Below are positions 8,909-31,229 of a stretch of DNA of 33,280 nucleotides, piece by piece. Each line of letters starts with the position of its first letter. Position 1 is the stretch's first letter. The stretch is taken from IMG/VR virus record IMGVR_UViG_2700989274_000006, positions 1 through 33,280 of that record; one strand, given 5' to 3'. A program made the translations under genes and the position numbers. Origin of the DNA: a virus (lineage: Duplodnaviria > Heunggongvirae > Uroviricota > Caudoviricetes). The notes below the pieces were generated by a model that saw only the letters and a program-made list of their open reading frames with translations, did no database searches and was not told the DNA's origin.

Positions 8909-11712
8909 GCATTAGTTCTCACTTTACGCTTCTTGCCTTTGGCCGGTGCAGCAGAAGCGGCCATCTTTATATAAAGATCAAATAGCTTTTCAAGCCGCTC
9001 TGTATCATTCTTAAAGCGACGGCCGATGTAGATGCGCTCCAGTACTTCATCATTGCGATCATGCGCAGCCCGCAGATCAGTAGGCATGTTAGCAGGATCG
9101 TATAGGTCCGCGATGGTCGCGGGAAAATGATGCTCACGCGCCAGAAGTATGTCCTCCGCGCAGCGTGTGAGGTCAGCCTTGTTTTTTTCTGTGAGTTTTG
9201 GTACTGGGAAGGTGTTCCAGCCGAGGGTGTTAGAGTAGCGGTAGCGTGTTTCCAATTTTCCGCAGATGGTGGCGATCCAAACCAGGTGTAGACGAGATGC
9301 AATGAGCGCAAGATTCCAGAGCGGAGCGTCGTAGAGAGCAAAGGCGAGGTTACTGACTACCGAATGATTATCAATCAGTCCAACAGGAAGATACTCGCGC
9401 CCTTCCGATGAAACCCCCGGTAGAATCAGCGTGTGCTTGCCACCGTGATACATTTCGCGAAACTGATGAGCCCGTGATGCTAACTCATTCGTACCAGCAT
9501 CTTTACTTTTGAGCCGCATTTCCCGAACGCCATCAATCCGACCCCGAATAGACGCAATCTCCAAAGCTTGCGGCAATTTTACATCAGGGATCCAGAGGCA
9601 CTTACGTACTACTCCGCGAATAAACTCGGCAGAACCATAGATGCGCCGAAGAAATGTCTCTTCATCCTGCTTGCTCAAACCGAGCGAAACCGCGTCATCC
9701 GCCGATAACAAAAGATTTCCCCCATCGACGGGCATGTTGCCAAAAGACATATCCGGCAGACCCGATATGCTCTTGCGCTGGCCCTCGACTACAACATCCT
9801 CACCAACACTCAGATAGGGCGTGATGTTTGTCGCCTCGCGTACAGTAGTTTGGCCATTGCGGTCCAAGTCGTAAAGTAGCCTTGTCTTACTCACATCCGT
9901 AGATAGGCCGACGATAGCGACTGTTACACCCGCGTTGTGTGCAGCAAGGTTCGTCCATTTGAAGCTGGAGTGCGCGAAGCGAATGTGGGAGCCACATTTG
10001 AAAATTGCTGGCCACAGGATAGGAACAATTCGGCCTTGACAGATAGAGTTGGTGCTAACAAAAGCCGAATCCGTTGGTGTGGCTTGCGCGTAGGCAGCAG
10101 CTTTCATGAACCAACCACCAACATAATCGATTTGTTTAGACGAAATACCATAAGGTTCAAATACCGAAGCCAAATCCGCTTTCTGCTCTTTAGTCTGCGT
10201 TTGGCTACCTTTGTAAGGTGGGTTACCACAGATGTATGTCTCCCCACCTTCGTTCTGAAAGCCAATCTCTGCTTGACCGAGAGGCGTCTCAAAGAGGTTA
10301 TCTGCCTGCAACTTCACGCCAATTCCGGACGGAGGGCAAACGCTCAACCAATCAATCCGCAATGCGTTGCCACATGTAATCCAATTATCATTACGCAGAG
10401 GAAGAAACTCGGCCAGTGCAAGTTTTAGTCCCCGGTACACCACATCGCACTGATACTCAGCAATAACTAGCGCGAGACGGGCAATCTCCGCAGGGAAATC
10501 TCGTATTTCGATCCCGCGAAAGTTGGTAAGAGGGATGTCAGAGGCATTATCCATCTCGCCACGTCGTCGATTAATCTCGGCCTCGATGGCTCGCATTTCC
10601 TTGTACGCAATCACTAAGAAGTTGCCAGATCCACATGCTGGGTCGAATACGCGGATTCGGGCCATACGCTTGCGCAGATTGAGCAGCATGCGCGGATTGT
10701 CACCGGCTTCATCCAGTTTCGCCCGCAGTTCGTCGAGGAATAGTGGGTTAAGCACCTTGAGTATATTGGGGACACTAGTGTAATGCATTCCCAACTCACC
10801 ACGCTCTTCGTCTTCGGTAATGGCCTGAATCATCGAGCCGAATATGTCTGGGTTGATTTTGGTCCAATCCAGATTGCCAACATGTAGAAGATAGGATCGC
10901 GCAATACGGCTGAAGCGCGGTACCTCCTCACTTCCCGAGAAAAGAGCGCCGTTTACATAAGGAAACTCAGCAGCCCAACGCGGGATACCGACAACACTTC
11001 GCTCATCGCGTGGGGTGTTCATTGCACGAAACAACGTGGCGATGACCTCGTGCAAATTAGAAGCGTCGCGCTCACTCATCTGCGCAATAGTGTCAGTAAA
11101 GCGCCCCTTGCCTATAAATATGTCAGTGTCTTCGGCGAAAAAGCAGAAAATTAGACGCGCCATGAACTTGTTCATGTCATGACGACGCCCCGAAGTACCC
11201 CATTCAGGATTGTCTTTTAACAGTTCGACGTACAGGCGGTTCAAACGGCTAGTAGCACGGATGTCAAAGGCGTCTTCGCTGATCTGCCGAACAGTGCTGA
11301 TACCTGCCAATGGCAAAAAGAAGCCGAAGTGATCGGGAAAGTCTTTAAAGGCACAAGCCACAGTCTGACCACTGTTGAGGTCCTCGGCTTCAAAGTATTT
11401 GCCGTCCGTGGCAAGGATGAATTTCGCCTTGGCCTTGCCTGTTGCCGGGCTGGCCTTAAGTGCAGCCAGCATCTGTGTGACTTGGCCCCCTTCACTGGCC
11501 AGAATGTGGATGTTGTTTGTCTGAAGAACACCACCCAAGTCGGACTTATTCGATGCCCCGGCGCGCAGACGTTTGATGGTCGTTTCCTTGTTACCAAAGG
11601 CTTCAAGAAAAGCATAAGGAAACTCTATAGGATCAAAGGGTTGTTCCGCAAGATCCGTGATGGCTTGCTCAATTTCTACGGCGTTCATTTGCGTACAGTT
11701 CTCCATTGGCAT
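8905..11712 (-). CDS. MmeI-family (type IIG/IIL-like, YeeA-like) N6-adenine DNA methyltransferase, apparently without endonuclease motif
   Basis: 935 aa; SAM motif I FDPACGSGNFLV, catalytic motif IV GNPPY; further MmeI-family blocks MARLIFCFFAEDTDIF, LGMHYTSVPNILKVLNPLFLDEL; no PD-(D/E)xK seen in the N-terminal ~120 aa. Confidence 0.85.
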   Translation of the reverse strand: MPMENCTQMNAVEIEQAITDLAEQPFDPIEFPYAFLEAFGNKETTIKRLRAGASNKSDLGGVLQTNNIHILASEGGQVTQMLAALKASPATGKAKAKFILATDGKYFEAEDLNSGQTVACAFKDFPDHFGFFLPLAGISTVRQISEDAFDIRATSRLNRLYVELLKDNPEWGTSGRRHDMNKFMARLIFCFFAEDTDIFIGKGRFTDTIAQMSERDASNLHEVIATLFRAMNTPRDERSVVGIPRWAAEFPYVNGALFSGSEEVPRFSRIARSYLLHVGNLDWTKINPDIFGSMIQAITEDEERGELGMHYTSVPNILKVLNPLFLDELRAKLDEAGDNPRMLLNLRKRMARIRVFDPACGSGNFLVIAYKEMRAIEAEINRRRGEMDNASDIPLTNFRGIEIRDFPAEIARLALVIAEYQCDVVYRGLKLALAEFLPLRNDNWITCGNALRIDWLSVCPPSGIGVKLQADNLFETPLGQAEIGFQNEGGETYICGNPPYKGSQTQTKEQKADLASVFEPYGISSKQIDYVGGWFMKAAAYAQATPTDSAFVSTNSICQGRIVPILWPAIFKCGSHIRFAHSSFKWTNLAAHNAGVTVAIVGLSTDVSKTRLLYDLDRNGQTTVREATNITPYLSVGEDVVVEGQRKSISGLPDMSFGNMPVDGGNLLLSADDAVSLGLSKQDEETFLRRIYGSAEFIRGVVRKCLWIPDVKLPQALEIASIRGRIDGVREMRLKSKDAGTNELASRAHQFREMYHGGKHTLILPGVSSEGREYLPVGLIDNHSVVSNLAFALYDAPLWNLALIASRLHLVWIATICGKLETRYRYSNTLGWNTFPVPKLTEKNKADLTRCAEDILLAREHHFPATIADLYDPANMPTDLRAAHDRNDEVLERIYIGRRFKNDTERLEKLFDLYIKMAASAAPAKGKKRKVRTNA

Positions 11713-11993
11713 GTGACCGCCCTGCTGCTACTGGTGTGCAGTGAACTCATGTCATATCCTAGGTTTTCTTGGAAATTTTTGACCGTAAGTTTAACAGAAT
11801 AGAACCCAGCGCTGTAGCTGATTCAGTCTCAGATCCACGTTTCAGAAAGCCCTATTATGTATTTATGGCGAGAATTTTAGCATTGAGATATTTTCGATAA
11901 AATATACATATTTTCAGCCAATTAAAGACTGCTAAATTCATGGTATATGAGACGCTCGCATGTGAGTAACTTCCGTTCTTATTTCTGGTTTTC

Positions 11994-13316
11994 TTAAAAC
12001 GTATTAAGGTTGCACCGAATATGGTTTTCCCCGCTGACCCTGACCCGATTGACTGTCCAGTCAGCTATGACGTCAAGCACATGACGAAGGTAGCTTTCTG
12101 GATCCACGCCGTTTAGTTTGCACGTCCCGATCAGACTGTACATCAGCGCTACACGCTCACCTCCGTGGTCTGAGCCGAAGAACAGCCAGTTTTTTCTCCC
12201 CAAACTGACCATCCGCAGCGCATTTTCAGCGATGTTGTTATCGGCTTCTGTCCAGCCATTGCCTGCATAGTGCGTCAGGGCCGGCCACTGGTTAAGGGCG
12301 TACGCGAACGCTTTCGCCAGCTCTGAGTGTCGTGACAGGGTGTTCATCTTTTCACGCAGCCAGCTTTCCAGGGATTTCAGCAGCGGTTTCGCTTTCTGCT
12401 GACGTTCAGCAAGACGTTGCTCCGCCGGCATTCCCCTTATTTCCGCCCCGATGGCATACAACCCGCCGATACGCTTCAGGGCATCCTCCGTCAGCGCCGA
12501 CGGCGTGCGGGCGTACACATCGTGGATTTTACGGCGGGCGTGAGCCCAGCAGGCGGCTTCCGTTATCTGGCCACCGCGGTACAACTCGTTGAATCCTGCA
12601 TACGCATCCGCCTGCAGCACTCCCCTGAAGCCGGCAAGATGGGTCTGCGGGTGGATGGCTTTTCTGTCCGGGCTGTAAGCGAACCACACCGCCGGTGCGA
12701 CTGCTGACCCGGCGTTGCGGTCATCACGAACGTACTTCCACAATCGCCCGGACTTCGTCTTCTTATTGCCCGACAGCAGCATCTGGACCGGGGTATCATC
12801 GACATGGAGTTTGCCGTCGCTCAGGACATAGCCCCGAAGCGCCTCCTCCAGCGGTGACAGCAGCCTGCAGCATGCATCCACCCAGCCCGACAGGAGGGAG
12901 CGGCTCAGTTCCACACCCTGGCGGCTATATATTTCAGACTGGCGGTACAGCGGGGTATGCTCTGCATACTTTGAGCCCAGTACCCGGGCCAGCAGCCCCG
13001 CTCCGGCGATACTCCGCTCGATGGGACGTGAAGGCGCGGGGGCCTGCACGATAGCGTCGCATTTTGTACAGGCGTGTTTTTCCCGCACGGTCCGGATAAC
13101 CCGGAAGGCGCTGCGCATCAGCTCCAGCTGTTCAGCAGTATCTTCACCCAGCCAGCGCAGTGAATCGCCACAGTCCGGGCAGCATGATGCCGCCGACAAC
13201 AGCCGTTTTTCGTCACGAGGGAGTGATTCGGGGAACGGTTTACGGGTGCGGGTCTGGCGAAGCGACCACGCTCCAGCCGTTTGGTCAGCAGACACAGCCT
13301 GTCGCCGGTAGACCAC
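11994..13316 (-). CDS. tnpC: IS66-family transposase TnpC (N-terminus likely truncated)
   Basis: 440 aa; conserved IS66 TnpC blocks LPRDEK, CPDCGDSLRWLGEDTAEQLEL, IVQAPAPSRPIERSIAG, HTPLYRQSEI; only ~26 aa precede the LPR motif whereas family members usually carry a longer N-terminal zipper region. Confidence 0.8.
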   Translation of the reverse strand: MVYRRQAVSADQTAGAWSLRQTRTRKPFPESLPRDEKRLLSAASCCPDCGDSLRWLGEDTAEQLELMRSAFRVIRTVREKHACTKCDAIVQAPAPSRPIERSIAGAGLLARVLGSKYAEHTPLYRQSEIYSRQGVELSRSLLSGWVDACCRLLSPLEEALRGYVLSDGKLHVDDTPVQMLLSGNKKTKSGRLWKYVRDDRNAGSAVAPAVWFAYSPDRKAIHPQTHLAGFRGVLQADAYAGFNELYRGGQITEAACWAHARRKIHDVYARTPSALTEDALKRIGGLYAIGAEIRGMPAEQRLAERQQKAKPLLKSLESWLREKMNTLSRHSELAKAFAYALNQWPALTHYAGNGWTEADNNIAENALRMVSLGRKNWLFFGSDHGGERVALMYSLIGTCKLNGVDPESYLRHVLDVIADWTVNRVRVSGENHIRCNLNTF

Positions 13317-13486
13317 AGCAATTTTACCTGACTGCCACTGCAGCCCCGGAAGATGAAGACTTGGCCGGACATCGGGTCGTCTTTCAGTGCCGTCTGCACT
13401 TTTGCCGCCAGCCCGTTGAAGCCGTTGCGCATGTCGGTGATACCGGCAACCAGCCAGATTTTAGTGCCTGCAGGAAGATTTATCAT
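13118..13486 (-). CDS. tnpB: IS66 Orf2 (TnpB)
   Basis: N-terminal WLVAGITDMRNGFNGLAAKVQ ... KRLERGRF is the IS66 OrfB signature; the C-terminal tail looks atypical and overlaps the tnpC start by ~200 nt, consistent with a frameshift or deletion. Confidence 0.75.
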   Translation of the reverse strand: MINLPAGTKIWLVAGITDMRNGFNGLAAKVQTALKDDPMSGQVFIFRGCSGSQVKLLWSTGDRLCLLTKRLERGRFARPAPVNRSPNHSLVTKNGCCRRHHAARTVAIHCAGWVKILLNSWS

Positions 13487-13866
13487 ACAGTCCCTCGCAT
13501 CAGTTCGCGCAGGACAGTGGTGATGAGTTCAGTTGAGGGATGAGTCAGTGTTATATCTCCGCCCCGACATTTTATGTGACAGGCAGTCTGAGGTGAACAG
13601 GATGGCGGTTCGGGCGTTGGGGGAGATGGCTCTGCCCGAAATTGCACGGGTATGAGAGCAGGAAGCGACGATGCGTTTTTCCGTGGGTGGCAGACCCGCC
13701 CTTCACGTTGCCAGAGCCTTATCCATTTAAAGAGCAGGTTGTCATTGACATCATGTTGTCGGGCCAGCGCAGCAACACTTCCTTCTTTTTCAAGTGCCAG
13801 CCTGACCAGTTCCATTTTAAACTCAGGGGAATATCGTTTTCGGGGAAGTCTTTCTTTGGCGCGCAT
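13483..13866 (-). CDS. tnpA: IS66 Orf1 (TnpA, HTH protein)
   Basis: 127 aa; RKRYSPEFKMELVRLALEKEGSVAALARQHDVNDNLLFKW is an IS66/IS3-type N-terminal HTH; stop overlaps the tnpB start (ATGA). Confidence 0.8.
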   Translation of the reverse strand: MRAKERLPRKRYSPEFKMELVRLALEKEGSVAALARQHDVNDNLLFKWIRLWQREGRVCHPRKNASSLPALIPVQFRAEPSPPTPEPPSCSPQTACHIKCRGGDITLTHPSTELITTVLRELMRGTV

Positions 13867-14089
13867 TAGGTGTCCACCTGCAAATTAAGTGGGGGCTTAA
13901 GTTACAGGATAGTGGTTTCAGAGCCAGACGTTTTTGAGACAACGCTTACTCTAAACCCAAGCGTAAATGTCTATTATTGGCAAAATACCACCAGCCAACA
14001 TGAGCTGTGATGTAAAGTTGACACTGCTACAGTTACATGAGCCTGTTTATATTCTAAATAAATTCAGATAGATATTATCTCCGTGAATC

Positions 14090-14128
14090 CCCCGCCTCCC
14101 TGACCGGAGCGCGGGAATTTTTGTTTTT
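14090..14128 (+). terminator. Hairpin plus T-tract; candidate late-operon terminator (tR'-like) upstream of the lysis region
   Basis: GCCCGCCTCC ... GGAGCGCGGG imperfect stem followed by AATTTTTGTTTTT; a TTGACA hexamer lies at 14018-14023, but no convincing -10 was found. Confidence 0.35.
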
Positions 14129-14252
14129 CACGCTGAGAACCCTGTATGAATAAAACTGATGGCCTTCAGGCCCTGGAAAAACCGCTGGCGTCGCTTCCCG
14201 ATACGCTTCGCCAGCTTATTCTTGAACGTATTCAGAATCTGACCCACTACGA

Positions 14253-14262
14253 NNNNNNNNNN
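14253..14262. other. Assembly gap (10 N)
   Basis: Run of n characters; interrupts a plus-strand ORF that begins MNKTDGLQALEKP at 14146. Confidence 0.99.
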
Positions 14263-14281
14263 GCCACCGACGGCATTGCGG

Positions 14282-14695
14282 TCAGAAAAAGATGATATTG
14301 AATCGCCCATTGAAAAACTGGAGGGCAGCGTCGCTGATCTGAATAAAAAATTGTCGGTGCTGATTCCTTCTGAAGATGAAAAAAAACGCCGCGATGAGCA
14401 GTTTGCGGCGTTTTACGATTATTGCATTGAAGTTACTCTCGCAGGAATTTTGTGAAGATTTTTGAGGAGGGTAAATCTCTTCAGTAAGCTTAATGGCGGA
14501 CGCTGCAATTAATTCAGGAAGGTCCGCAAGGTCATCTGTCAGTGGATATGATGAAAAATCGGCGGCAGTTCTGTTAAGAAGCGCTTTAACTAATTCCTTT
14601 TCCTTCTCCGGCAACAAGTTGATTAGAGCTACGACTGCTTGCCTGAGTGCGATTAAATCAGCAAAAGTTTGTTTAGGTAGATTTGTGTAATCCAT
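14282..14695 (-). CDS. Hypothetical protein (extent uncertain)
   Basis: ORF with AGAGG about 9 nt upstream of the ATG at 14695; its C-terminal half overlaps a plus-strand reading frame that crosses the gap, so the true coding extent is ambiguous. Confidence 0.3.
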   Translation of the reverse strand: MDYTNLPKQTFADLIALRQAVVALINLLPEKEKELVKALLNRTAADFSSYPLTDDLADLPELIAASAIKLTEEIYPPQKSSQNSCESNFNAIIVKRRKLLIAAFFFIFRRNQHRQFFIQISDAALQFFNGRFNIIFF

Positions 14696-14808
14696 AGTCG
14701 CCTCTGTGTTTATCAGATTGACATCCTCCTCCCGCCAGTGCCCATCACTGGTGAGGTAAGATTTAACATATCCGGGGATTTGAAGCCGATAAATCCTGAT
14801 AAATATCC

Positions 14809-15836
<1,028 letters not shown>

Positions 15837-16087
15837 ATTAATATTAAATCGGATTATTTTTAGCGCTGAATGTGAAATTTAAATAAAAAGGACTCTTCCA
15901 TGAGTCAAAATCCTTGAAATCTTAAGGGTAAGATAAAAGGTCATTAGACAGAATGACACGTTTTATTAATAAATAAAGCTATTGTTTCATTCGTGTGTTT
16001 TTCTTTACAAAAGTAATCCTTGCTATGGTTGGTTAATCATGCGTTAATGGTGTTCTGGTTTGTTACAAAATTATCTGAAGCAGTCAT

Positions 16088-16096
16088 TGTTATAAT
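16088..16096 (+). promoter_or_regulatory. Extended -10 element (TGtTATAAT), candidate promoter for the csp gene
   Basis: tgttataat at 16088-16096, about 105 nt upstream of the csp ATG, which would give the long 5' UTR typical of cold-shock genes; no good -35. Confidence 0.3.
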
Positions 16097-16199
16097 TTTA
16101 TTATTTGTACCTCTTGAGATTTCCTTGTTGGTTTTTCTCTCTGATATTTTTTTTCGGACCATTCTGCCCAAGGGCTAACTTCTTCAAAAGGTAATAATG

Positions 16200-16412
16200 A
16201 TGTCTAACAAAATGACTGGTTTAGTGAAATGGTTTAACCCTGAAAAAGGTTTTGGTTTCATCACGCCGAAAGATGGTAGCAAAGATGTGTTTGTCCATTT
16301 CTCAGCTATTCAGAGCAACGATTTCAAAACGTTAACTGAGAATCAGGAAGTCGAATTTGGTATTGAGAACGGACCTAAAGGCCCCGCGGCTGTTCATGTT
16401 GTGGCACTTTGA
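16200..16412 (+). CDS. cspI: CspA-family cold-shock protein (CspI-like, prophage-borne)
   Basis: 70 aa; [38 protein letters not shown] contains the RNP1/RNP2 motifs; the sequence matches my recollection of E. coli Qin-prophage CspI. Confidence 0.85.
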
Positions 16413-16611
16413 GGTAGAAAATATTACAAACCATATTCACTTTAGATGCCCGTGTTGCCATGGTTCTCAGTATAGAACATCATCTTTTGATGTTTCTGAC
16501 AGGAATCCTTTCGGGGCAAAATGTATCTTTTGTAAATCAATGATGATTACATTTGATAATATTTCACAATACTTAAATGTTAGCCGTCTATCGTTAGATT
16601 TAAGAAAGTGA
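16396..16611 (+). CDS. Possible small zinc-ribbon protein
   Basis: CPCCHG...(21 aa)...CIFC pairs of Cys; ATG at 16396 overlaps the csp 3' end; no clear RBS; ends 7 nt before a strong terminator. Confidence 0.25.
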
Positions 16612-16618
16612 AAATGAA

Positions 16619-16640
16619 GGCTCCTTCGGGAGCTTTTTTG
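16619..16640 (+). terminator. Rho-independent terminator (UUCG tetraloop)
   Basis: GGCTCC-TTCG-GGAGC followed by TTTTTT. Confidence 0.7.
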
Positions 16641-16723
16641 CTTAGTGTCTAGTCGATGGATACTCACATATTACGGTAACATTATGAAAAAAAATAATAG
16701 TTTTTTTTAACTCTGAACCAGCA

Positions 16724-16915
16724 ATGGTAGTGCCAGTGATGACCGGAGTTAACACCATCATGCGTGAATATCCAAATGGCGAAACAACACACCTCACTGT
16801 AATGGCTGCAGGGTTTCCATCTCTGACCGGAGATCATAAAGTCATTTATGTAGCAGCGGATCGACATGTAACTTCAGAAGAAATTCTGGAAGCAGCAATG
16901 AGACTCTTGAATTGA
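16724..16915 (+). CDS. Hypothetical small protein
   Basis: 63 aa ORF; no recognised motif. Confidence 0.3.
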   Translation: MVVPVMTGVNTIMREYPNGETTHLTVMAAGFPSLTGDHKVIYVAADRHVTSEEILEAAMRLLN

Positions 16916-17084
16916 TTTGATTCTAATGCATTGATAATAAATGATAATCATCTTTATCTGTTTGTGTGAAATTTAGACCGTCGTATGTTGATTATTGCGA
17001 TGTTTCATCTTATCTTTTATACGTTTGCTCCATATAATTGACACTACTGTGTACCAGGAAAGTCATAACAGACTAAAAGAGGAA

Positions 17085-17261
17085 ATGATGAACATTGAAG
17101 AGTTAAAAACAAAAACAGAAGCAGATATTTCTGAATATATAACAAAAAAAATCATTGAGCTTAAGAAAAAGACCGGGAAAGAAGTTACCAGTATCCAGTT
17201 TACTGCACGGGAAAAAATGACTGGTCTTGAAAGCTATGATATCAAGATTGATTTAATCTAG
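17085..17261 (+). CDS. GnsA/GnsB-family protein (prophage moron)
   Basis: MMNIEELKTKTEADISEYITKKIIELKKKTGKEVTSIQFTAREKMTGLESYDIKIDLI matches the Gns family; AAGAGGA upstream of the ATG at 17085. Confidence 0.7.
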   Translation: MMNIEELKTKTEADISEYITKKIIELKKKTGKEVTSIQFTAREKMTGLESYDIKIDLI

Positions 17262-17554
17262 TCTGTTTAGTATTAGCATCAATTTCTCATCAGATGCTAT
17301 TCAACAATACAAATTACCCATAAACCTCGTTTTTACGGGGTTTTGTTATATTTAAACATTACCGAATAGGTATAAATCTCGATTGTCGATGGTATTGGTT
17401 GTGTGACAATACCTAGTCTTTCCGGTATGCCTGAAGAGAATACAAACGACAGATTATGTAAGGGAAACGCGCTGAATCTTTAACTCTTTCATGCTGAGTG
17501 ATTTGACGTTATATTTTTAGCCGTAAGTGAAGAGCAAACGCATGGAGCGACAAA

Positions 17555-17761
17555 ATGCATAAAGATCAATACACTGATGCCCCCTCCCAGGAGCAGGTTC
17601 GTGTAAAAACTATGCTTAATAGCACCATTTCGATGGGTTACCCGGATGTTGTAATTGCATGTATAGAACATCAAGTGTCTCTGGAAGCATTCAGGGCAAT
17701 TGAGGCCGCGTTAGTAAAGCACGATAAGAATACGAAGGATTATTCCCTGGTGGTTGACTGA
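17555..17761 (+). CDS. Hypothetical small protein
   Basis: 68 aa ORF with GGAG 8 nt upstream of the ATG; no recognised motif. Confidence 0.4.
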
Positions 17762-18127
17762 TCACCATAACTGCTAACCATTCTGACCATTTCACAAGTG
17801 ACAGAGTCAATATCGTATTCTGTCACTGTCAGGCTAATACAGCAATGCAATTCAACTACAGCAATGCCTCGTATTTAGGTGAATTTACAATATCGTCCAG
17901 TTCGGATGCCGGCTGCATTTCTGAAGATAAGGCATTTCGGTTCTCGTATTTTCCCCTCATGCTCGTCAGTCCTGCGCGTAGTAAGAAACAGGACACTCAC
18001 ACTAATTTGTGTGGGCATGCTGTGATGTCCTTCTGAATTATCCCCATGCCATTATGTAAAGCTCTGTTTCAGATGCTCGTCACGGTTGTCAGGCTGTCGG
18101 GTCCTCCCAGTGGGGGTCCCTGCCACG

Positions 18128-18139
18128 GGGCGGGAGCGT
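18128..18139 (+). other. Candidate cosN cohesive-end site of the prophage
   Basis: acg-GGGCGGGAGCGT-cgcgg closely resembles lambda acg-GGGCGGCGACCT-cgcgg (9 of 12 positions, identical flanks); lies 196 nt upstream of the Nu1-like ATG at 18324, versus ~190 nt in lambda. Confidence 0.55.
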
Positions 18140-18323
18140 CGCGGAAAAAGGCTAGTTTTTGCATTTCCATGGCGGCGGCAGCATGTTTGGTAATTTATTG
18201 ATAATTAAAAGTTATTTCTCTTTTCAGCTGTACAATATTTTTTTCTCCCTGTCATTAGACTAGTTTGCAATTAATTGAAATATATAAATAAACCTGATTT
18301 TCACCTGCCAGATGGAGTTGCTT

Positions 18324-18851
18324 ATGTCAAATGTGAGCGGGATCGGTGATGCTTATTACTGGAGTGTTTTTAAAATCGCCGAGGCCTTTGGGCTTCACTG
18401 GGACACAGTAAAAAAACGGCTCCTCGCGGCCAACACTCCTGTGGCTGCGACTGTCAGGGGGAACCCCGTTTACGCCCTGCAGCATGTCGGGCCTGCCCTG
18501 TTTAGTGTGAAGCATGAGGCAGCAGACTCTGTTCATGATCCATCCCGTATGGAGCCGAAAGAGAGAAAGGACTGGTACCAGTCGGAAAATGAAAGGATCA
18601 AGCTGGAAAAGGAGCAGCGAAAACTCATCCCCGTTGATGAAGTAGTCATCGTCTATTCGTCCATGAGAAAGGCTGTCGTCCAGGTTCTGGAGACAATTCC
18701 GGATGTTCTTGAACGCGATTGCGCCCTGACTCCTCAGGCCGTTGGCGTTGTACAGCAGGCCATTGATGACCTGCGATACACTCTTCAGGAAAAATCCTAC
18801 GAGGCTTGTGCTGCTGAATTAATTCCTGATGAGGAAGGAGAGAGTCTCTAG
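18324..18851 (+). CDS. Terminase small subunit (Nu1-like)
   Basis: N-terminal winged-HTH-like pattern similar to lambda Nu1; immediately upstream of the large terminase; an alternative ATG at 18312 is in frame. Confidence 0.65.
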   Translation: MSNVSGIGDAYYWSVFKIAEAFGLHWDTVKKRLLAANTPVAATVRGNPVYALQHVGPALFSVKHEAADSVHDPSRMEPKERKDWYQSENERIKLEKEQRKLIPVDEVVIVYSSMRKAVVQVLETIPDVLERDCALTPQAVGVVQQAIDDLRYTLQEKSYEACAAELIPDEEGESL

Positions 18852-18859
18852 GAGGAATA

Positions 18860-20959
18860 ATGGGTTTTTCATCAGCCCGAAATTTGGGAAGGGACATATC
18901 GGCAGGATTTTCCCCACCACGTCGCATGCCGATTTCGGAGGCTGTTAAAAAATTCATGCGTGTTCCCAAGGGGGCTGGTAACTCGGTGCCATGGGATCCT
19001 GAACTGACACCCTACATCATTGAGCCCATGAACTGCCTGGCATCGCGTGAATACGATGCGGTGATTTTTGTTGGTCCTGCGCGAACAGGGAAGACCATTG
19101 GTCTGATCGATGGATGGATTGTCTATACCATCGTTTGCGATCCTTCGGACATGCTCGTTGTGCAGATGACCGAAGATAAGGCCCGCGAGCATTCAAAAAA
19201 GCGCCTCGACAGAACGTTCAGAAGCAGTGCGGCGGTAAAGAAAAGAATGAGTCCACGTCGTAATGACAATAATGTCCATGATAAGACGTTCAGGGATGGC
19301 TCGTTCCTTAAAATTGGTTGGCCCTCGGTCAACATTATGTCGTCGTCGGATTACCGGTTTGTCGCCTTAACCGATTACGACCGTTTTCCGGAGAATATCG
19401 ACAGCGAGGGTGATGGTTTCTCCCTGGCCTCAAAACGTACCACCACATTTATGTCCGCCGGGATGACTCTGGTGGAGAGCTCGCCGGGACGTGACATCTG
19501 CGACAGCAAATGGCGACGTAAGTCGCCTCATGAAGCGCCACCGACGACTGGTATTCTTTCCCTTTACAATCGTGGTGACCGCCGCCGCTGGTACTGGCCA
19601 TGTCCGCACTGCGGTGAATATTTTCAGCCAGCCATGGATGCCATGACCGGCTACCGTAATGAACCGGATCCCTTTAAAGCCAGTGAGGCGGCGTATCTAC
19701 TTTGCCCGCACTGCAGCGGCATTATCACGGCGGAGAAAAAGCGTGAGCTCAATAGTGCAGGAGTCTGGTTGCGTGAAGGTCAGGTCATTGATTGTAACGG
19801 CAACGTTTCCGGTGAACCGCGCCGCTCCCGTATCGCCAGTTTCTGGATGGAAGGGCCAGCTGCTGCGTATCAGACCTGGGCGCAACTGGTTTACAAATTA
19901 CTGACTGCAGAACAGGAGTATGAAGCGACAGGAAGTGAAGAAACACTCAGGGCGGTTATCAACACCGACTGGGGATTACCTTATCTTCCCCGCGCCAGCA
20001 TGGAGCAACGAAAAAGTGAACTGCTTGAGCAGCGGGCAGAGCCAGTTCCTTCCCGCAGTGTGCCGGATGGCGTTAATTTTCTTGTGGCGACAGTGGATGT
20101 GCAGGCGGGACGTCATCGCCGTTTTGTGGTTCAGGTAACGGGCTATGGCAGCCGTGGCGAACGCTGGATTATTGATCGTTACAACATCACGCAGTCATTG
20201 CGCGGTGACAGCGACGGGGAGAGCCAGCGAATTGATCCGGCCAGCTATCCGGAAGACTGGGATGTCCTGCTGACGGATGTTTTTCATAAAAGCTGGCCGC
20301 TGGCCTCCGATCCTTCTCAACAAATGCGACTGATGGCAATGGCGGTGGACTCCGGCGGTGAAGACGGGGTCACTGATAATGCCTATAAATTCTGGCGTCG
20401 TTGCCGTCGTGATGGCCTTGGTAAACGTATTTACCTGTTTAAGGGCGACAGCATCCGGCGCGCAAAACTGATCACCCGTACATTCCCTGATAACACCGGA
20501 CGAACGGGCCGACGGGCGCAGGCCGCAGGTGATGTGCCGCTCTGGCTTCTTCAGACGGATGCACTGAAAGACCGGGTGAATAACGCGTTATGGCGTGACT
20601 CGCCAGGTCCCGGCTATGTGCATTTCCCTGACTGGCTGGGGAGCTGGTTTTACGACGAACTGACGTATGAAGAGCGGAGCAGTGACGGGAAATGGAGTAA
20701 GCCGGGTCGCGGTGCCAACGAAGCTTTTGACCTGATGGTGTATGCCGAGGCTCTGGTCATTCTGCATGGATACGAAAAGATCCGCTGGCCGGATGCACCG
20801 GAGTGGGCGAGCCGGGAAACCTGGCTGGAGTGTGTCCCGGACAGTACCGAACCGTCATCCTCACCGGAACCGGTATCCACGCCTGTTAAAAAACAAAAAC
20901 GGAAGAAAACAGTAACTGACGATGTTAACCCCTGGCTGACTTCCGGAGGATGGTTATGA
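18860..20959 (+). CDS. Terminase large subunit (GpA family)
   Basis: 699 aa; AGGAGG RBS; GpA-family signature YWPCPHCGEYF (lambda ACPHCGEEQY); matching gene order. Confidence 0.9.
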   Translation: MGFSSARNLGRDISAGFSPPRRMPISEAVKKFMRVPKGAGNSVPWDPELTPYIIEPMNCLASREYDAVIFVGPARTGKTIGLIDGWIVYTIVCDPSDMLVVQMTEDKAREHSKKRLDRTFRSSAAVKKRMSPRRNDNNVHDKTFRDGSFLKIGWPSVNIMSSSDYRFVALTDYDRFPENIDSEGDGFSLASKRTTTFMSAGMTLVESSPGRDICDSKWRRKSPHEAPPTTGILSLYNRGDRRRWYWPCPHCGEYFQPAMDAMTGYRNEPDPFKASEAAYLLCPHCSGIITAEKKRELNSAGVWLREGQVIDCNGNVSGEPRRSRIASFWMEGPAAAYQTWAQLVYKLLTAEQEYEATGSEETLRAVINTDWGLPYLPRASMEQRKSELLEQRAEPVPSRSVPDGVNFLVATVDVQAGRHRRFVVQVTGYGSRGERWIIDRYNITQSLRGDSDGESQRIDPASYPEDWDVLLTDVFHKSWPLASDPSQQMRLMAMAVDSGGEDGVTDNAYKFWRRCRRDGLGKRIYLFKGDSIRRAKLITRTFPDNTGRTGRRAQAAGDVPLWLLQTDALKDRVNNALWRDSPGPGYVHFPDWLGSWFYDELTYEERSSDGKWSKPGRGANEAFDLMVYAEALVILHGYEKIRWPDAPEWASRETWLECVPDSTEPSSSPEPVSTPVKKQKRKKTVTDDVNPWLTSGGWL

Positions 20960-21168
20960 ACCAGAATGATATCGAAGCCATGATTCAGCGTTATACGGAA
21001 GCTGAAATGGCGGTGCTGGACGGAAAATCCGTCACCTTTAATGGTCAGCAGATGACCATGGAAAACTTATCTGAGATCCGGCAGGGACGGCAGGAGTGGG
21101 AGCGCCGCCTTGCGGCTCTGATTACACGACGACGGGGGCATCCCGGGTATCGGCTGGCGAGGTTCTGA
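20956..21168 (+). CDS. Head-tail joining protein (lambda W-like)
   Basis: 70 aa; GGAGGA RBS; size, position and C-terminal RRRG motif resemble lambda gpW. Confidence 0.65.
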   Translation: MNQNDIEAMIQRYTEAEMAVLDGKSVTFNGQQMTMENLSEIRQGRQEWERRLAALITRRRGHPGYRLARF

Positions 21169-22676
21169 TGGCAATTCTTGATGATGTGATTGGCGTTTTT
21201 TCACCAGGATGGAAAGCGGCAAGGCTGCGTTCCCGTGCGGTGATCCAGGCTTATGAGGCCGTAAAAACGACGCGGACACACAAAGCCCGACGGGAGAACC
21301 GAACTGCCGACCAGTTAAGCCAGTACGGGGCCGTGTCGTTACGTGAGCAGGCCCGTTACCTTGATAACAACCACGATCTGGTTATTGGTGTATTTGACAA
21401 GCTGGAAGAACGGGTGGTGGGGAAAAACGGGATTATTGTCGAGCCACATCCGGTATTACGCAATGGGGCCATTGCCCGTGACCTGGCTGCGGAGATTCGC
21501 ACCCGATGGAGTGAATGGTCTGTCAGCCCGGAAGTCACCGGGCAGTTTACCCGTCCGATGCTGGAACGTCTGATGCTTCGTACCTGGCTGCGCGATGGTG
21601 AGGTGTTTGCCCAGATGGTTTCCGGGCGCATAAACAGCCTGACGCCTTCTGCCGGTGTTCATTTCTGGCTGGAGGCGCTCGAGCCGGACTTTATTCCCAT
21701 GACCAGTGATGAGAGCAACAGGCTGAATCAGGGCGTGTTTGTTGATGACTGGGGGCGTCCCGAAAAATATCTGGTGTATAAAAGCCGTCCCGTATCCGGA
21801 CGGCAGATGGAAACCAAAGAAGTGGATGCAGAGCGAATGCTGCATCTTAAATTTGTTCGCCGTCTGCACCAGATGCGCGGGACGTCTTTATTGTCCGGTG
21901 TGCTGATCCGCCTCAGTGCTCTGAAAGAGTATGAAGATTCTGAGCTGACTGCAGCAAGGATCGCCGCTGCTCTGGGGATGTACATCCGGAAAGGCGACGG
22001 GCAGAGCTATGAAGCGGATGGTAATGGCAGCAAGGATAAGGAACGCGAGCTTACCATTCAGCCAGGCATTATTTACGATGATCTGAAACCCGGCGAAGAA
22101 ATCGGAATGGTGAAGTCGGATCGCCCCAATCCTAACCTTGAAACTTTTCGTAATGGTCAGTTGCGTGCCGTGGCGGCGGGCAGTCGTCTGAGTTTTTCCA
22201 GTACAGCGCGCAACTATAACGGCACTTACAGCGCCCAGCGTCAGGAGCTGGTTGAATCCACTGATGGCTACCTGATCCTGCAGGACTGGTTTATTGGTGC
22301 CGTCACCCGTCCGATGTATCGTGCCTGGCTGAAACAGGCTGTGGCATCCGGTGTTATCAGGCTACCCCGCGATCTTGACCGTTCTTCACTGTATACCGCG
22401 GTGTATTCCGGACCGGTGATGCCGTGGATTGACCCTGTTAAGGAGGCTGAGGCCTGGAAAATCCAGATTCGTGGTGGAGCGGCGACAGAATCAGACTGGG
22501 TACGTGCTGGTGGTCGTAATCCGGATGATGTCAAACGTCGGCGCAAGGCCGAAATTGATGAAAACCGCAAGCTGGATCTGGTATTTGATACCGATCCGGC
22601 CAGTGATAAAGGAGGCAGCAGTGCCGCAACGAAACGACATGAGCCGCAGCACACCGACGACCAGTCCGAAGAATAA
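21168..22676 (+). CDS. Portal protein (lambda B-like)
   Basis: ~502 aa; ATG overlaps the W stop (ATGA); position between W and the prohead protease; the longest ORF begins at 21096. Confidence 0.8.
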   Translation: MAILDDVIGVFSPGWKAARLRSRAVIQAYEAVKTTRTHKARRENRTADQLSQYGAVSLREQARYLDNNHDLVIGVFDKLEERVVGKNGIIVEPHPVLRNGAIARDLAAEIRTRWSEWSVSPEVTGQFTRPMLERLMLRTWLRDGEVFAQMVSGRINSLTPSAGVHFWLEALEPDFIPMTSDESNRLNQGVFVDDWGRPEKYLVYKSRPVSGRQMETKEVDAERMLHLKFVRRLHQMRGTSLLSGVLIRLSALKEYEDSELTAARIAAALGMYIRKGDGQSYEADGNGSKDKERELTIQPGIIYDDLKPGEEIGMVKSDRPNPNLETFRNGQLRAVAAGSRLSFSSTARNYNGTYSAQRQELVESTDGYLILQDWFIGAVTRPMYRAWLKQAVASGVIRLPRDLDRSSLYTAVYSGPVMPWIDPVKEAEAWKIQIRGGAATESDWVRAGGRNPDDVKRRRKAEIDENRKLDLVFDTDPASDKGGSSAATKRHEPQHTDDQSEE

Positions 22677-24648
22677 TTCCTGGTTCAGGATGCAGGCTGG
22701 TCACCAGAGTGACGCGGATATTTATATTTATGACGAGATTGGTTTCTGGGGTGTTACAGCGAAGCAGTTTATCAGTGATCTGAATGCACTGGGCGATATC
22801 ACCCACATTAATCTCCATATTAATTCACCGGGTGGCGATGTCTTTGAAGGCATCGCCATTTTTAATGCGCTGAAAACACATGGTGCGTCCATTACCGTTT
22901 ATGTCGACGGTGTGGCGGCGTCAATGGCGTCGGTCATTGCGATGGTGGGAAACCCGGTCATTATGCCGGAAAACACCTTCATGATGATTCATAAACCATT
23001 TGGCTTTACGGGCGGTGATGCGGAGGACATGCGCACCTATGCCGACCTGCTCGATAAAGTTGAGGCGGTTCTGTTACCCGCTTATGCACAGAAAACCGGG
23101 AAAACCACCGATGAAATTGCTGCCATGCTGGCGGATGAGACCTGGATGTCCGGTGCCGAATGTCTGGCACATGGATTTGCTGATCAGGTAACGCCAGCCG
23201 TTAAGGCAATGGCATGTATTCAGTCAAAACGTACAGAGGAATTTAAAAAGATGCCGGAATCCATTCGAAACATGATTACTCCGCCACGCAACAGTGCTCC
23301 ACGCGTACAGGATAATGAACCTGAAGCCTCCCGGACGCCAGTGCAGGCAGCAGCACCCGTGGTGGATGAAAACAGCATCCGTGCGCAGGTACTGGCAGAG
23401 CAAAAAGCGCGTGTAAACGGTATTAATGATCTGTTTGCCATGTTTGGCGGGCGTTATCAGACGCTGCAGGCTCAGTGTCTTGCCGATCCTGAATGTTCGC
23501 TGGAGCAGGCCCGCGAAAAGCTGTTGAACGAGATGGGGCGCGAGTCCACGCCATCCAATAAAAATACCCCGGCTCATATTTATGCCGGTAACGGTAATTT
23601 TGTGGGGGACGGGATCCGCCAGGCGCTGATGGCGCGTGCCGGATTTGAAAAAACCGAACGTGATAATGTCTACAACGGGATGACCCTGCGTGAATATGCC
23701 CGTATGTCACTGACTGAACGGGGTATTGGGGTTTCCAGTTATAACCCGATGCAGATGGTCGGTGCGGCGTTCACACACAGTACGTCTGACTTCGGTAATA
23801 TTCTGCTGGATGTTGCGAACAAAGCCATTCTGCAGGGCTGGGAAGATGCCCCTGAAACCTATGAACAGTGGACGCGGAAAGGTCAGTTGTCTGATTTTAA
23901 AATTGCCCATCGTGTGGGTATGGGTGGCTTCAGTGCTCTGCGTCAGGTGCGTGAAGGGGCGGAATATAAATACGTCACCACCGGAGATAAACAGGCCACT
24001 ATTGCACTGGCGACCTATGGCGAGCTGTTCAGTATCACCCGTCAGGCCATTATCAATGATGATCTGAATATGCTGACCGATGTCCCGATGAAACTGGGCC
24101 GTGCGGCGAAATCCACTATTGCCGATCTGGTTTATGCCATTCTGACGTCTAACCCGAAAATCTCCACAGATAATGTAAGTCTGTTCGATAAAGCGAAACA
24201 TGCAAACGTACTGGAGAGCGCTGCAATGGACGTGGCATCGCTGGATAAAGCCCGCCAGTTGATGCGCGTTCAGAAAGAGGGGGAGCGTCATCTGAATATT
24301 CGTCCTGCGTTCGTACTGGTACCGACGGCGATGGAGTCTGTTGCTAACCAGGTCATTCGCTCCTCAAGTGTCAAGGGGGCTGACATTAACGCCGGTATTA
24401 TTAACCCGGTGAAAGATTTTGCGACCGTTATTGCAGAGCCTCGTCTTGATGATAACAGCCAGACCACCTTCTACCTGGCTGCGTCAAAAGGCTCCGATAC
24501 GATTGAAGTGGCTTATCTCAACGGTGTGGATACGCCATATATTGATCAGATGGAGGGCTTCAGTGTGGATGGCGTGACAACGAAAGTGCGTATTGACGCC
24601 GGTGTCGCGCCAGTTGATCACCGCGGTCTGGTGAAATGTACGGCGTAA
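22639..24648 (+). CDS. Prohead protease (ClpP/S49-like) fused to major capsid protein
   Basis: N-terminal protease motifs HINSPGGDVFEGIAIFNAL and GVAASMASVIAM; C-terminal ~330 aa resembles Mu gpT-type major head subunits; start uncertain (22639 or 22690). Confidence 0.7.
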   Translation: MSRSTPTTSPKNNSWFRMQAGHQSDADIYIYDEIGFWGVTAKQFISDLNALGDITHINLHINSPGGDVFEGIAIFNALKTHGASITVYVDGVAASMASVIAMVGNPVIMPENTFMMIHKPFGFTGGDAEDMRTYADLLDKVEAVLLPAYAQKTGKTTDEIAAMLADETWMSGAECLAHGFADQVTPAVKAMACIQSKRTEEFKKMPESIRNMITPPRNSAPRVQDNEPEASRTPVQAAAPVVDENSIRAQVLAEQKARVNGINDLFAMFGGRYQTLQAQCLADPECSLEQAREKLLNEMGRESTPSNKNTPAHIYAGNGNFVGDGIRQALMARAGFEKTERDNVYNGMTLREYARMSLTERGIGVSSYNPMQMVGAAFTHSTSDFGNILLDVANKAILQGWEDAPETYEQWTRKGQLSDFKIAHRVGMGGFSALRQVREGAEYKYVTTGDKQATIALATYGELFSITRQAIINDDLNMLTDVPMKLGRAAKSTIADLVYAILTSNPKISTDNVSLFDKAKHANVLESAAMDVASLDKARQLMRVQKEGERHLNIRPAFVLVPTAMESVANQVIRSSSVKGADINAGIINPVKDFATVIAEPRLDDNSQTTFYLAASKGSDTIEVAYLNGVDTPYIDQMEGFSVDGVTTKVRIDAGVAPVDHRGLVKCTA

Positions 24649-24671
24649 ACGTCGCAGACAACAACTCTGAT

Positions 24672-24691
24672 GGCCCGTAAGGGCTTTTTTT
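24672..24691 (+). terminator. Weak intrinsic terminator after the capsid gene
   Basis: GGCCC-GTAA-GGGCT followed by a T7 run; short stem. Confidence 0.4.
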
Positions 24692-24734
24692 GTACCTGAA
24701 ATCAGCCCCTGAACGGGGCTGTGCGGAGACAGTT

Positions 24735-25058
24735 ATGGCAAAGAATTTTGTAGAAGAAGGAAAAACGGTGGCGATTGTTGCCAGTGCAGCCATCAGCAGC
24801 GGAGATCTGGTGCAGGTGGGTGATGTTTTTGCGGTGGCGCTGACCGATATTCCACAGGGTGAAACAGGCGACGGCATGACCGAAGGTGTGTTTATCCTGC
24901 CTAAACTGAAAACGGATGACATGAAAACGGGTAAGAAGGTTTATCTGAAGTCCGGAAAAGTTCAGCTGACTAACAGCGGCTCTGATCCGCTGGTCGGGGT
25001 TGTCTGGGCAGATGCCGGAACCAGTGCAGAAGAAGTGCCGGTAAAACTCAATGTCTGA
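24735..25058 (+). CDS. Putative head accessory/decoration protein
   Basis: 108 aa ORF directly after the capsid gene; assignment is by position and a vague recollection of a DUF2190-type family only. Confidence 0.35.
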   Translation: MAKNFVEEGKTVAIVASAAISSGDLVQVGDVFAVALTDIPQGETGDGMTEGVFILPKLKTDDMKTGKKVYLKSGKVQLTNSGSDPLVGVVWADAGTSAEEVPVKLNV

Positions 25059-25326
25059 TCCCTTTTCCCGGCTGGCAGCGCGTATGGATGCGATCACGGT
25101 CAGAAAGATGGGAAAGACAGCCTCGATTAATGATGTCGATATGGCTGTGATCCCGGGCGAAACACTGGCAGAGCTGAATGCTCTGTCCGGACCTGCGGTC
25201 TCTCTGGTGGTGTTTTCTTCGGGATACCGCCCACGGCGCGGGGATCGCGTTGTTTATGACGGACAACAATGGACGGTCACACGGCATGAACGTTTTAACG
25301 GTAAGCCAATGATCTTTATTGAGTAA
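25051..25326 (+). CDS. Head-tail attachment protein (lambda FII-like)
   Basis: 91 aa; F..L.A, MGK.A.I and RRGD...W.V pattern resembles lambda gpFII; located before Z. Confidence 0.5.
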   Translation: MSDPFSRLAARMDAITVRKMGKTASINDVDMAVIPGETLAELNALSGPAVSLVVFSSGYRPRRGDRVVYDGQQWTVTRHERFNGKPMIFIE

Positions 25327-25337
25327 AGAGGTGTGGG

Positions 25338-25916
25338 ATGAAGGGGCTTGAGAATGCCATCCGCAATCTGAACAGCCTTGATACCCGTATGGTGCCACAG
25401 GCCAGCGCATGGGCGATAAACCGTGTGGCACAGAAAGCGGTCTCGGTTGCCACCCGGCAGGTTGCCGGGAATACCGTTGCGGGAGATAACCAGGTGAAAG
25501 GGATCCCCCTGAAACTGGTACGTCAGCGTGTCCGGGTGTTTAAAGCCAGTCCGTCAGGAAAAATGACGGCCAGGATCCGCGTTAACCGGGGCAATCTGCC
25601 CGCCATTAAGCTGGGGACAGCCCGGGTCAGACTGGCCCGGCGTGGTGGAAAACTGCAGTACCGTGGCAGTGTGCTGAAGGTGGGTAAATATCTTTTCCGG
25701 GATGCGTTTATTCAGCAACTGGCGAATGGTCGCTGGCATGTGATGCGGCGTATTGATGGCAAAAATCGTTACCCCATTGATGTGGTGAAAATCCCGCTTT
25801 CCGGACCGCTGACACAGGCATTTGAAGATGCCCGCGACCGCATCATTGCTGCGGAAATGCCGAAACAGCTGGGGTATGCACTGAAACAACAACTGAGGTT
25901 ATGGCTGACCCGATGA
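25338..25916 (+). CDS. Tail completion protein (lambda Z-like)
   Basis: 192 aa, the same length as lambda gpZ, and immediately upstream of a clear gpU homolog. Confidence 0.6.
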   Translation: MKGLENAIRNLNSLDTRMVPQASAWAINRVAQKAVSVATRQVAGNTVAGDNQVKGIPLKLVRQRVRVFKASPSGKMTARIRVNRGNLPAIKLGTARVRLARRGGKLQYRGSVLKVGKYLFRDAFIQQLANGRWHVMRRIDGKNRYPIDVVKIPLSGPLTQAFEDARDRIIAAEMPKQLGYALKQQLRLWLTR

Positions 25917-26314
25917 ACCGACATACACAAATCCGCCAGGCCGTACTGGCACGCCTTCGGGAACAGTGTGGAGACAGCGCCACGTTTTTTGACGGGCTTC
26001 CGGCATTTATTGATGCGCAGGAACTGCCTGCCGTGGCGGTGTGGCTGAGTGATGCTCAGTACACCGGAAAAATGACGGATGAAGATGACTGGCAGGCTGT
26101 TCTGCATATTGCTGTCTTCATCCGGGCACAGGCACCGGATTCAGAGCTGGATATGTGGATGGAGAGCACCATTTTCCCGGCTCTGAATGATATACCGGCA
26201 CTTTCCGGACTCATCGACACCCTGATCCCTCTCGGTTTTAACTATCAACGTGATAATGAGATGGCCACCTGGGCGATGGCGGAAATCACGTACCAGATCA
26301 CGTACACGAATTAA
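25913..26314 (+). CDS. U: Tail terminator protein U
   Basis: Strong similarity to lambda gpU: ATFFDG, PAVAVWLSDAQYTGK, PDSELDMWMES, DIPALSGLI, ITYQITY; start at 25913 overlaps the Z stop (ATGA). Confidence 0.9.
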   Translation: MNRHTQIRQAVLARLREQCGDSATFFDGLPAFIDAQELPAVAVWLSDAQYTGKMTDEDDWQAVLHIAVFIRAQAPDSELDMWMESTIFPALNDIPALSGLIDTLIPLGFNYQRDNEMATWAMAEITYQITYTN

Positions 26315-26319
26315 AGGAG

Positions 26320-27069
26320 GTGGCAATGACCACACCAAATCCACTGGCAAAAACGAAAGGTGCGGGAACGACGTTCTGGATGTACACCGGCAAGGGCGAT
26401 GCGTTTGCGAACCCTTTATCGGACACTGACTGGCTGCGTCTTGCGATGGTGAAGGATCTGCAACCTGGCGAAATGACCGCTGATGCAGAAGATGACACTT
26501 ATCTCGATGATGAAGATGCAGACTGGAAAACGACAACCCAGGGGCAGAAATCCGTCGGTGATACTTCGGCGACGCTGGCCTGGCGTCCGGGTGACAGCGG
26601 ACAGAAAAAACTGGTTCAGTTGTTCGACTCCGGTGAAGTCTGCGCGTTTCGTATCAAATATCCCAACGGCACTGTTGATGTTTTCCGTGGCTGGCTGAGC
26701 TCACTGGGTAAAACCATTGCCTCAAAAGACGTGATGACCCACACAGTGAAAATCAGCGGTGTGGGGCGTCCGTATCTGGCAGAGGAAGGCACTGAAACAG
26801 TGAGCGTTACCGGGCTGACGGTGGCACCGGCATCTGCCAGTGTAAAAGTGGGAGCAACCACCACGCTGACCTTTACAGTAAAACCTGACGGAGCCAGTGA
26901 CAAAGCGATCAGTGTGCATTCGACAGATCCACAGACTGCCACGGTGACCCTGAACGGGCTTGTGGCCACGGTGAAAGGCGTGAAGCAGGGCAGTGTCAGC
27001 ATTGTGGGCATGACTTCTGACGGCGATTTTGTGGCAGTGGCTGCGGTGGCTGTCAGCGCCGCAGGTTAA
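26320..27069 (+). CDS. V: Major tail protein V with C-terminal Ig-like domain
   Basis: Strong similarity to lambda gpV: KGAGTT, ANPLSD, YLDDEDADW, QGQKS.GDTS.TLAW, PNGTVDVFRGW. Confidence 0.9.
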   Translation: MAMTTPNPLAKTKGAGTTFWMYTGKGDAFANPLSDTDWLRLAMVKDLQPGEMTADAEDDTYLDDEDADWKTTTQGQKSVGDTSATLAWRPGDSGQKKLVQLFDSGEVCAFRIKYPNGTVDVFRGWLSSLGKTIASKDVMTHTVKISGVGRPYLAEEGTETVSVTGLTVAPASASVKVGATTTLTFTVKPDGASDKAISVHSTDPQTATVTLNGLVATVKGVKQGSVSIVGMTSDGDFVAVAAVAVSAAG

Positions 27070-27089
27070 CAGGACGATACTCATCATTT

Positions 27090-27113: not shown

Positions 27114-27126
27114 GCAGGTGGAGAAC

Positions 27127-31220: not shown

Positions 31221-31229
31221 GAGTCTCTG

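Follow-up and report, generated by a model that had tools for sequence, protein, structure and literature searches.

A predicted lambda-type cos site with a variant right half, upstream of the terminase genes of a widespread Escherichia coli prophage type

The window, by which we mean the whole 33,280-nt stretch of DNA analysed here, has been scaffolded from three contigs, with 10-N spacers between them at 14253–14262 and 31594–31603. Prophage sequence occupies the 17.3-kb contig between these spacers (14263–31593), whose breaks fall inside a ydfR-like gene and inside the gene for minor tail protein L. Because of the 10-N spacers, we attribute the position of an integrase island to the left of the prophage, and of host genes to its right, to assembly joins. 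For the same reason we rejected the integrase/restriction-modification island left of the lysis genes as a sign of a truncated prophage. The island itself (1–14252) is 99.8% identical to one in E. coli ECC-1470. In addition to the features listed in Table 1, it encodes a YagK/YfjJ protein and a Bro-N protein, and it looks like a defence island.

Within the prophage contig, lysozyme, Rz-like, cspI, ynfN-like and gnsB genes precede a 12-nt sequence, GGGCGGGAGCGT, of which the window holds exactly one copy. Following this sequence, in order, are terS, terL, a head-tail adaptor gene, a portal gene, a fused ClpP-protease/capsid gene and lambda-type tail genes (Table 1; adaptor and portal boundaries are taken from the RefSeq annotation of a homologous prophage). 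In lambdoid phages, cos likewise lies after the lysis genes and ahead of the terminase genes. The accessory cluster that lies between the lysis genes and this site (16197–17261) comprises cspI at 16197–16412, a ynfN-like gene and a GnsA/GnsB family gene at 16995–17261, a layout that matches Qin-like prophages. Homologues of this cluster in phage Tritos are highly expressed in the lysogen (PMC9928086).

Table 1. Features of the window discussed in the text. Coordinates are window positions, bp 1 of the cos region is 18128, and slashes bound the predicted cohesive end.
Feature	Position	Strand	Remarks
Tyrosine integrase	1–1326		island
T5orf172/GIY-YIG protein	5692–6936	-	island
DEAD-box helicase	6863–8908	-	island
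MmeI-family restriction-modification enzyme	8905–11712	-	island
IS66 element	~11994–14252		island
cosQ-like GGGTCCT	18099–18105	+	first base 29 nt before the predicted top-strand nick; same heptamer in lambda, at 30 nt
cosN, CCACG/GGGCGGGAGCGT/CGCGG	18123–18144 (-5 to 17)		predicted 22-bp nicking region
Predicted nicks	top strand 18127/18128; bottom strand 18139/18140		inferred from phage record boundaries
Predicted 12-nt 5′ cohesive end	18128–18139	+	left virion end 5′-GGGCGGGAGCGT, right end 5′-ACGCTCCCGCCC
Spacer CGCGGAAAAAGGCTAGTTTTTGC	18140–18162 (bp 13–35)	+	conserved, adjoins cosN
Candidate R3-equivalent block CATGGCGGCGGCAGCATGTT	18168–18187 (bp 41–60)	+	candidate small-terminase binding block
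IHF consensus site TATCAATAAATTA	18191–18203 (bp 64–76)	-	putative I1 equivalent
Second cosB block TTTTCAGCTGTACAAT ... TCCCTGTCA	18221–18254 (bp 94–127)	+	possible R2 region; weak evidence
Third cosB block TTTTCACCTGCCAGATGG	18298–18315 (bp 171–188)	+	possible R1 region
terS, terminase small subunit, 175 aa	18324–18851	+	Pfam DUF1441, PHROG 141
terL, terminase large subunit, gpA family, 699 aa	18860–20959	+	predicted cosN-nicking enzyme
Head-tail adaptor	20956–21168	+	phrog_118
Lambda-family portal	21168–22676	+	Pfam Phage_portal_2

The terS product matches Pfam DUF1441 (E 5e-43) and phrog_141 (E 2.8e-63), with a further match to phrog_57 (E 7.5e-9). Lambda Nu1 gives the reciprocal pattern, with phrog_57 as its main match (E 1.3e-76) and phrog_141 as a second one (E 5.6e-8). 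BLASTP detected no significant similarity between the terS product and Nu1, and the protein is not a member of Pfam Phage_Nu1. In its AlphaFold model (mean pLDDT 82), a helix-turn-helix with a beta-hairpin wing at the N terminus leads into long helices; the fold matches of this N-terminal domain are MerR-like winged helix-turn-helix proteins and a fragment of a viral packaging motor (Foldseek probabilities 0.9–1.0, E > 0.05). The DNA-binding domain of Nu1 is of this MerR-like class. An earlier note on this DNA, made from the sequence alone, had called the gene Nu1-like; this description seems fair for its predicted architecture and, judging from the reciprocal profile matches, for remote homology, and does not extend to family membership, which is that of DUF1441. 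The MSN start of terS is conserved in relatives and is preceded by GGAG at 18314–18317. The terL product matches Pfam GpA_ATPase (E 5e-81) and GpA_nuclease (E 1.8e-86) and falls in phrog_15, as does lambda gpA, to which it is 24% identical (E 7e-22).

The 12-mer stands at 18128–18139 on the plus strand, flanked within 18125–18144 by ACG on its left and CGCGG on its right; more widely, ...CTGCCACG leads into GGGCGGGAGCGT, which continues as CGCGGAAAAAGG... The corresponding junction in the lambda record (NC_001416) is ...GGTTACG/GGGCGGCGACCT/CGCGGGTTTT. Both flanks (three bases on the left, five on the right) and overhang bases 1–6 are the same as in this record, and the 12-mers share 8 of 12 bases, with four substitutions at positions 7, 8, 9 and 11. 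The earlier note had described a match to lambda cosN with three substitutions: the identity of the flanks and of bases 1–6 is borne out, and the count has to be corrected to four, three being the number by which Gifsy-1 (GGGCGGCAGCGT) departs from lambda. Allowing up to four mismatches, the 20-nt lambda context has a single match in the window. Twofold rotational symmetry extends over 12 of the 22 positions of cosN, compared with 10 of 22 in lambda. The resemblance in spacing that the note had pointed out also holds, the distance from 18128 to the terS ATG at 18324 being 196 nt, against 190 nt in lambda, where Nu1 begins at base 191. Were translation to start at the in-frame upstream ATG at 18312, as annotated in cdtI, the spacing would be 184 nt.

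The boundary at 18127/18128 coincides with the ends of deposited phage records. Those of cdtI (AB285204 / NC_009514) and Tritos (OV696610, linear) start with GGGCGGGAGCGTCGCGG..., in which bases 1–12 are GGGCGGGAGCGT, and both end in ...CTGCCACG. Tritos is produced spontaneously by E. coli LF82, forms plaques and has been imaged as a siphovirus (PMC9928086), and its cos region is 98.9% identical to that of the window; the paper describing it contains no discussion of cos or of how the record ends were set (PMC9928086). For phage LLS (PQ299149), bases 1–12, at the homologous position, are annotated as a '5′ extended single-strand cohesive site' with the sequence GGGCGGCGCGCT, a site that its authors inferred from the family of the large terminase and from the putative cos of mEp213 (PMC12315714). 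The record of Hafnia phage yong2 opens with CGCGGGAAACGGC..., immediately beyond the homologous 12-mer, which instead closes the record, so that its boundary marks the other, bottom-strand predicted nick. We found no report of experimental virion-end mapping for GGGCGGGAGCGT in the accessible literature, and the papers retrieved by full-text searches for this 12-mer, for its reverse complement or for the 12-mer of Gifsy-1 were all unrelated.

Scanning viral contigs with the pattern CACGGGGCGG-N6-CGCGGRA (framework CACG/GGGCGG-N6/CGCGGRA) recovered at least 124 sites at no fewer than 120 loci. A homologous terS starts 150–220 nt downstream on the same strand at 103 of the 124 sites listed, and terL follows terS at 89 of the 124, most of the rest being cut by contig ends. 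The window's 12-mer is the commonest of at least 24 variants (49 of the 124 sites listed), and all 24 12-mers among the matches listed vary in the right half. Position by position, the right half of the overhang is 50–70% conserved among the 113 unique sites listed, and conservation decays beyond bp 35.

The elements around cosN can be read against this survey. cosQ is the packaging-termination element (PMC9026076); its heptamer is 80–99% conserved among the 113 unique related sites listed, in a search whose pattern carried no cosQ requirement. On the other side, the spacer at bp 13–35 is the same in mEp460, phi458, PhiR40_1, mEp213, LLS, yong2 and PSTCR8lys and is thus common to phages with quite different small-terminase types, and bp 20–33, which the pattern leaves unconstrained, are 85–99% conserved among the matches listed. 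This spacer is probably read by the large subunit together with cosN. The block at bp 41–60 corresponds roughly in position to lambda R3 (bp 50–65; PMC9026076), and its sequence changes with the small-terminase type, whereas that of bp 13–35 does not. It reads CATGCTGTCAGCAGCAGGTG in relatives with 52–57% small-terminase identity and, in the types of mEp213, LLS, Fels-1 and Sakai, carries CATCATCATC-type sequences. Because it varies in this way, we regard the block as a candidate R3-like small-terminase site.

Further to the right, TATCAATAAATTA is an exact match to the IHF consensus WATCAANNNNTTR, one of seven such matches in the 33 kb. In an alignment with the relatives of 52–57% small-terminase identity, its TTGA core is invariant at the same position. 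Alignment with loci L042 and L029 and with PSTCR8lys shows that the second cosB block is positionally homologous to an inverted GAGGTGACA/TGTCACCTC pair in relatives. The third block overlaps the ribosome-binding site of terS (GGAG, see above), and TTTTCACCTG(A/C)CAGA directly before the start codon is conserved in relatives. The cosB of lambda has the order R3-I1(IHF)-R2-R1. A repeat search of cosB in the window found no lambda-style 16-bp R1/R2/R3 repeats and yielded nothing beyond short two-copy matches, for example AGGCTAGTTT/AGACTAGTTT. This pair was rejected as R sites, as its first copy lies in the spacer common to all small-terminase types. A simpler cosB exists within the lambda-like family, in N15 (PMC4669245). 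We also note a 51-codon open reading frame at 18046–18201 (+) that spans cosQ–cosN and matches nothing in Pfam or PHROG, probably a spurious call; 'hypothetical proteins' are likewise annotated over cos in HannyBb and, on the opposite strand, in mEp460_ev081.

Phage record boundaries, linkage to terminase genes and the anatomy of the cos region together support the view, put forward in the earlier note, that this site is the packaging origin and predicts the virion ends. Judged from its sequence, 18128–18139 is a real and functional-looking lambda-type cosN, and 18099–18323 is very probably the cos site, made up of cosQ, cosN and cosB, of an E. coli prophage that is lambda-like and of the cdtI/Tritos type. 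Such prophages are abundant. The 16.5–21.5 kb segment of the window matches 3427 of 5426 complete E. coli genomes, and the 86-nt cos core is covered to at least 80% in 2071 of the 5426 (~38%), at up to seven places per genome. In the RefSeq versions of those genomes, the core carries no annotation.

Such abundance also bears on whether the site is in use. The prophage could be defective (cryptic) and its cos, though structurally intact, idle, cut only by the same-specificity terminase of a co-resident or superinfecting phage, a situation that we consider unlikely here though well worth weighing. Many of the prophages that place this module in so large a share of E. coli genomes, several times over in some, are degraded, and some of the genome matches have IS insertions in the terminase region. 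The window itself contains only the lysis-to-tail part, on a contig that breaks inside prophage genes. The open reading frames of terS, terL, the portal, the protease-capsid fusion and the tape measure are nevertheless full-length in the window, and the absent early region is explained by assembly gaps rather than by deletion. Whichever way this is decided, it concerns the use of the site and not its identity as a lambda-type cos.

A second alternative, which we rate as very improbable, is that the terminase cuts here with another geometry, giving an overhang that is shifted by 1–2 bases or has a length other than 12 nt. The large terminase is, after all, just 24% identical to lambda gpA, and the distance from CACG to CGCGG is other than 12 nt in several related phages: 11 nt in VT1-Sakai (L011), 10 nt in CP-1639 (L012) and Stx2_14040 (L145) and 14 nt in Gifsy-2 (L018). 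These odd spacings reflect either a shifted right flank (e.g. GGGCGGGCGGCG/CGGAAAAA), a different end length or old sequencing errors in a GC-rich stretch. In the window, however, the flanking CG dinucleotides are exactly 12 apart, as in lambda and Gifsy-1, and the first base of the 12-mer opens both the cdtI and the Tritos record, as base 13 of the homologous site opens that of yong2. Finally, a chance GC-rich likeness to lambda cosN without packaging function is scarcely credible: although a match to the 20-nt lambda context with up to four mismatches, on either strand and at any place, arose in 62 of 3000 base shuffles of the window (~2%), chance is even less likely than this indicates because the site is on the correct strand directly upstream of the terS-terL genes, and it has cosQ at the right distance, recurs in conserved form in hundreds of sequences from phages and prophages and falls where phage records end.

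We return to the reading of the site as a lambda-type cos, whose cohesive end departs from that of lambda in its right half. Vahanian et al., in a 2017 study cited in PMC12315714 and PMC9026076, reportedly described that the left half of lambda-like cohesive ends is fixed and the right half free. Our survey reproduces this published rule. The Feiss laboratory, which likewise describes an invariant left and a variable right half, counts as lambda-like those phages whose 12-base 5′ ends show identity to those of lambda, and reports conservation of cosQ, bp 1–6 and the flanking CG dinucleotides (PMC4669245). Differences at bp 7–12 are common, N15 departing from lambda at bp 9 and 12 and Gifsy-1 at bp 8, 9 and 11, and right-half mutations, including C11G, had no phenotype in lambda (PMC4669245).

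Among the sites recovered here, a single terminase (~99% identical proteins, with cosB 92% identical) occurs with at least three ends, whose right-half hexamers are GAGCGT, CAGCGT and CAGCGG. At locus L091 (IMGVR_UViG_2778261579_000006), the small terminase is ~99% and the large terminase 99.8% identical to those of the window, and the hexamer is CAGCGG. Locus L112, whose contig ends before terL, combines a small terminase ~99% identical to the window's with the hexamer CAGCGT. By sequence comparison, these two loci are apparent natural right-half variants within one packaging specificity. Near-identical ends also occur with unrelated terminases, as in Gifsy-1 and the window phage.

The earlier note had further proposed that the variant overhang would be incompatible with lambda ends. 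This is plausible because the two ends mismatch at 4 of 12 positions. Chromosomes that pair a lambda end with an N15 end, mismatched at 2 of 12 positions, nevertheless circularise, and progeny yield falls about fourfold, to about a quarter of normal (PMC4669245). It is conceivable, but in our estimation improbable, that the cohesive end defines compatibility groups among lambda-like prophages sharing one E. coli cell. If it did, hybrid chromosomes carrying the cos start of one prophage and the end of another would be penalised unless their ends match. What speaks for such groups is the occurrence, described above, of several ends with a single terminase and of near-identical ends with unrelated terminases.

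A working scheme for the site can be drawn from the lambda model (PMC9026076, PMC4669245). During late development, the small terminase subunit would bind cosB, aided by an IHF-induced bend at 18191–18203, and in its bound state would position and anchor the gpA-family large subunit on cosN. The large subunit would then nick the top strand at 18127/18128 and the bottom strand at 18139/18140, 12 bp apart. Strand separation would leave 12-nt 5′ overhangs, GGGCGGGAGCGT on the left end and its complement ACGCTCCCGCCC on the right end, and rejoining of these predicted ends would restore CCACGGGGCGGGAGCGTCGCGG. Packaging would proceed by rightward translocation, through terS and terL, and would stop at the next cos, with cosQ (18099–18105) needed for the terminal cut. 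In this scheme, we infer the nicking, the cosB binding sites and the role of IHF by analogy.

This cos site is already known, in that ends identical to it entered GenBank with the record of cdtI and their pattern of variation has been published (PMC4669245). The prophage type to which it belongs is an ordinary one that is very widespread in E. coli. For that prophage family, the site would fix the packaging origin and the expected virion ends. It may accordingly be of use in orienting phage assemblies, in reading end-mapping results and in predicting cross-packaging between prophages.

Comparison with named phages places the site within this family. Phages cdtI, Tritos and HannyBb (PP925841) have the same 12-mer, GGGCGGGAGCGT, with cosB 97.5–99% identical and the small terminase 99.4% identical to those of the window; to the left of cosQ, the cdtI and Tritos sequences diverge from it, because different genes precede cos. 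LLS and mEp213 (GGGCGGCGCGCT) share the cos framework and the terminase lineage, with large terminases ~77–78% identical to the window's. They differ from it in the right-half hexamer (CGCGCT vs GAGCGT), in the N-terminal part of the small terminase and in the cosB block, which has CATCATCATC-type repeats. In phage Ayreon (L013, MF807953), family sequence near the record end runs through cosQ to ...CCACGGGG and then diverges abruptly (GGGGTGAAGGAAC...), with the rest of cosN absent; this divergence may be an assembly artefact at cohesive ends.

Gifsy-1 resembles the window in its end and differs from it in the machinery. Its end, GGGCGGCAGCGT, departs from that of the window only at position 7, and its cosQ heptamer and left flank (ACG/) are the same. 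Unlike the window, however, it has terminase and head genes of the true Nu1/phage 21 type, an unrelated cosB and the right flank CGCAGG, where the window reads CGCGGA. Lambda shares with the window the subsite order cosQ-cosN-cosB (cosQ distance 30 nt, vs 29 nt in the window), overhang bases 1–6, the flanking CG dinucleotides and a large terminase of the gpA family; the putative IHF site of the window also follows a block at roughly the R3 position. The two differ in that the lambda small terminase belongs to another Pfam family than the DUF1441 protein of the window, the large terminases are 24% identical and the head genes of the window are of Gifsy-2 type, with a fused protease-capsid gene, unlike those of lambda.
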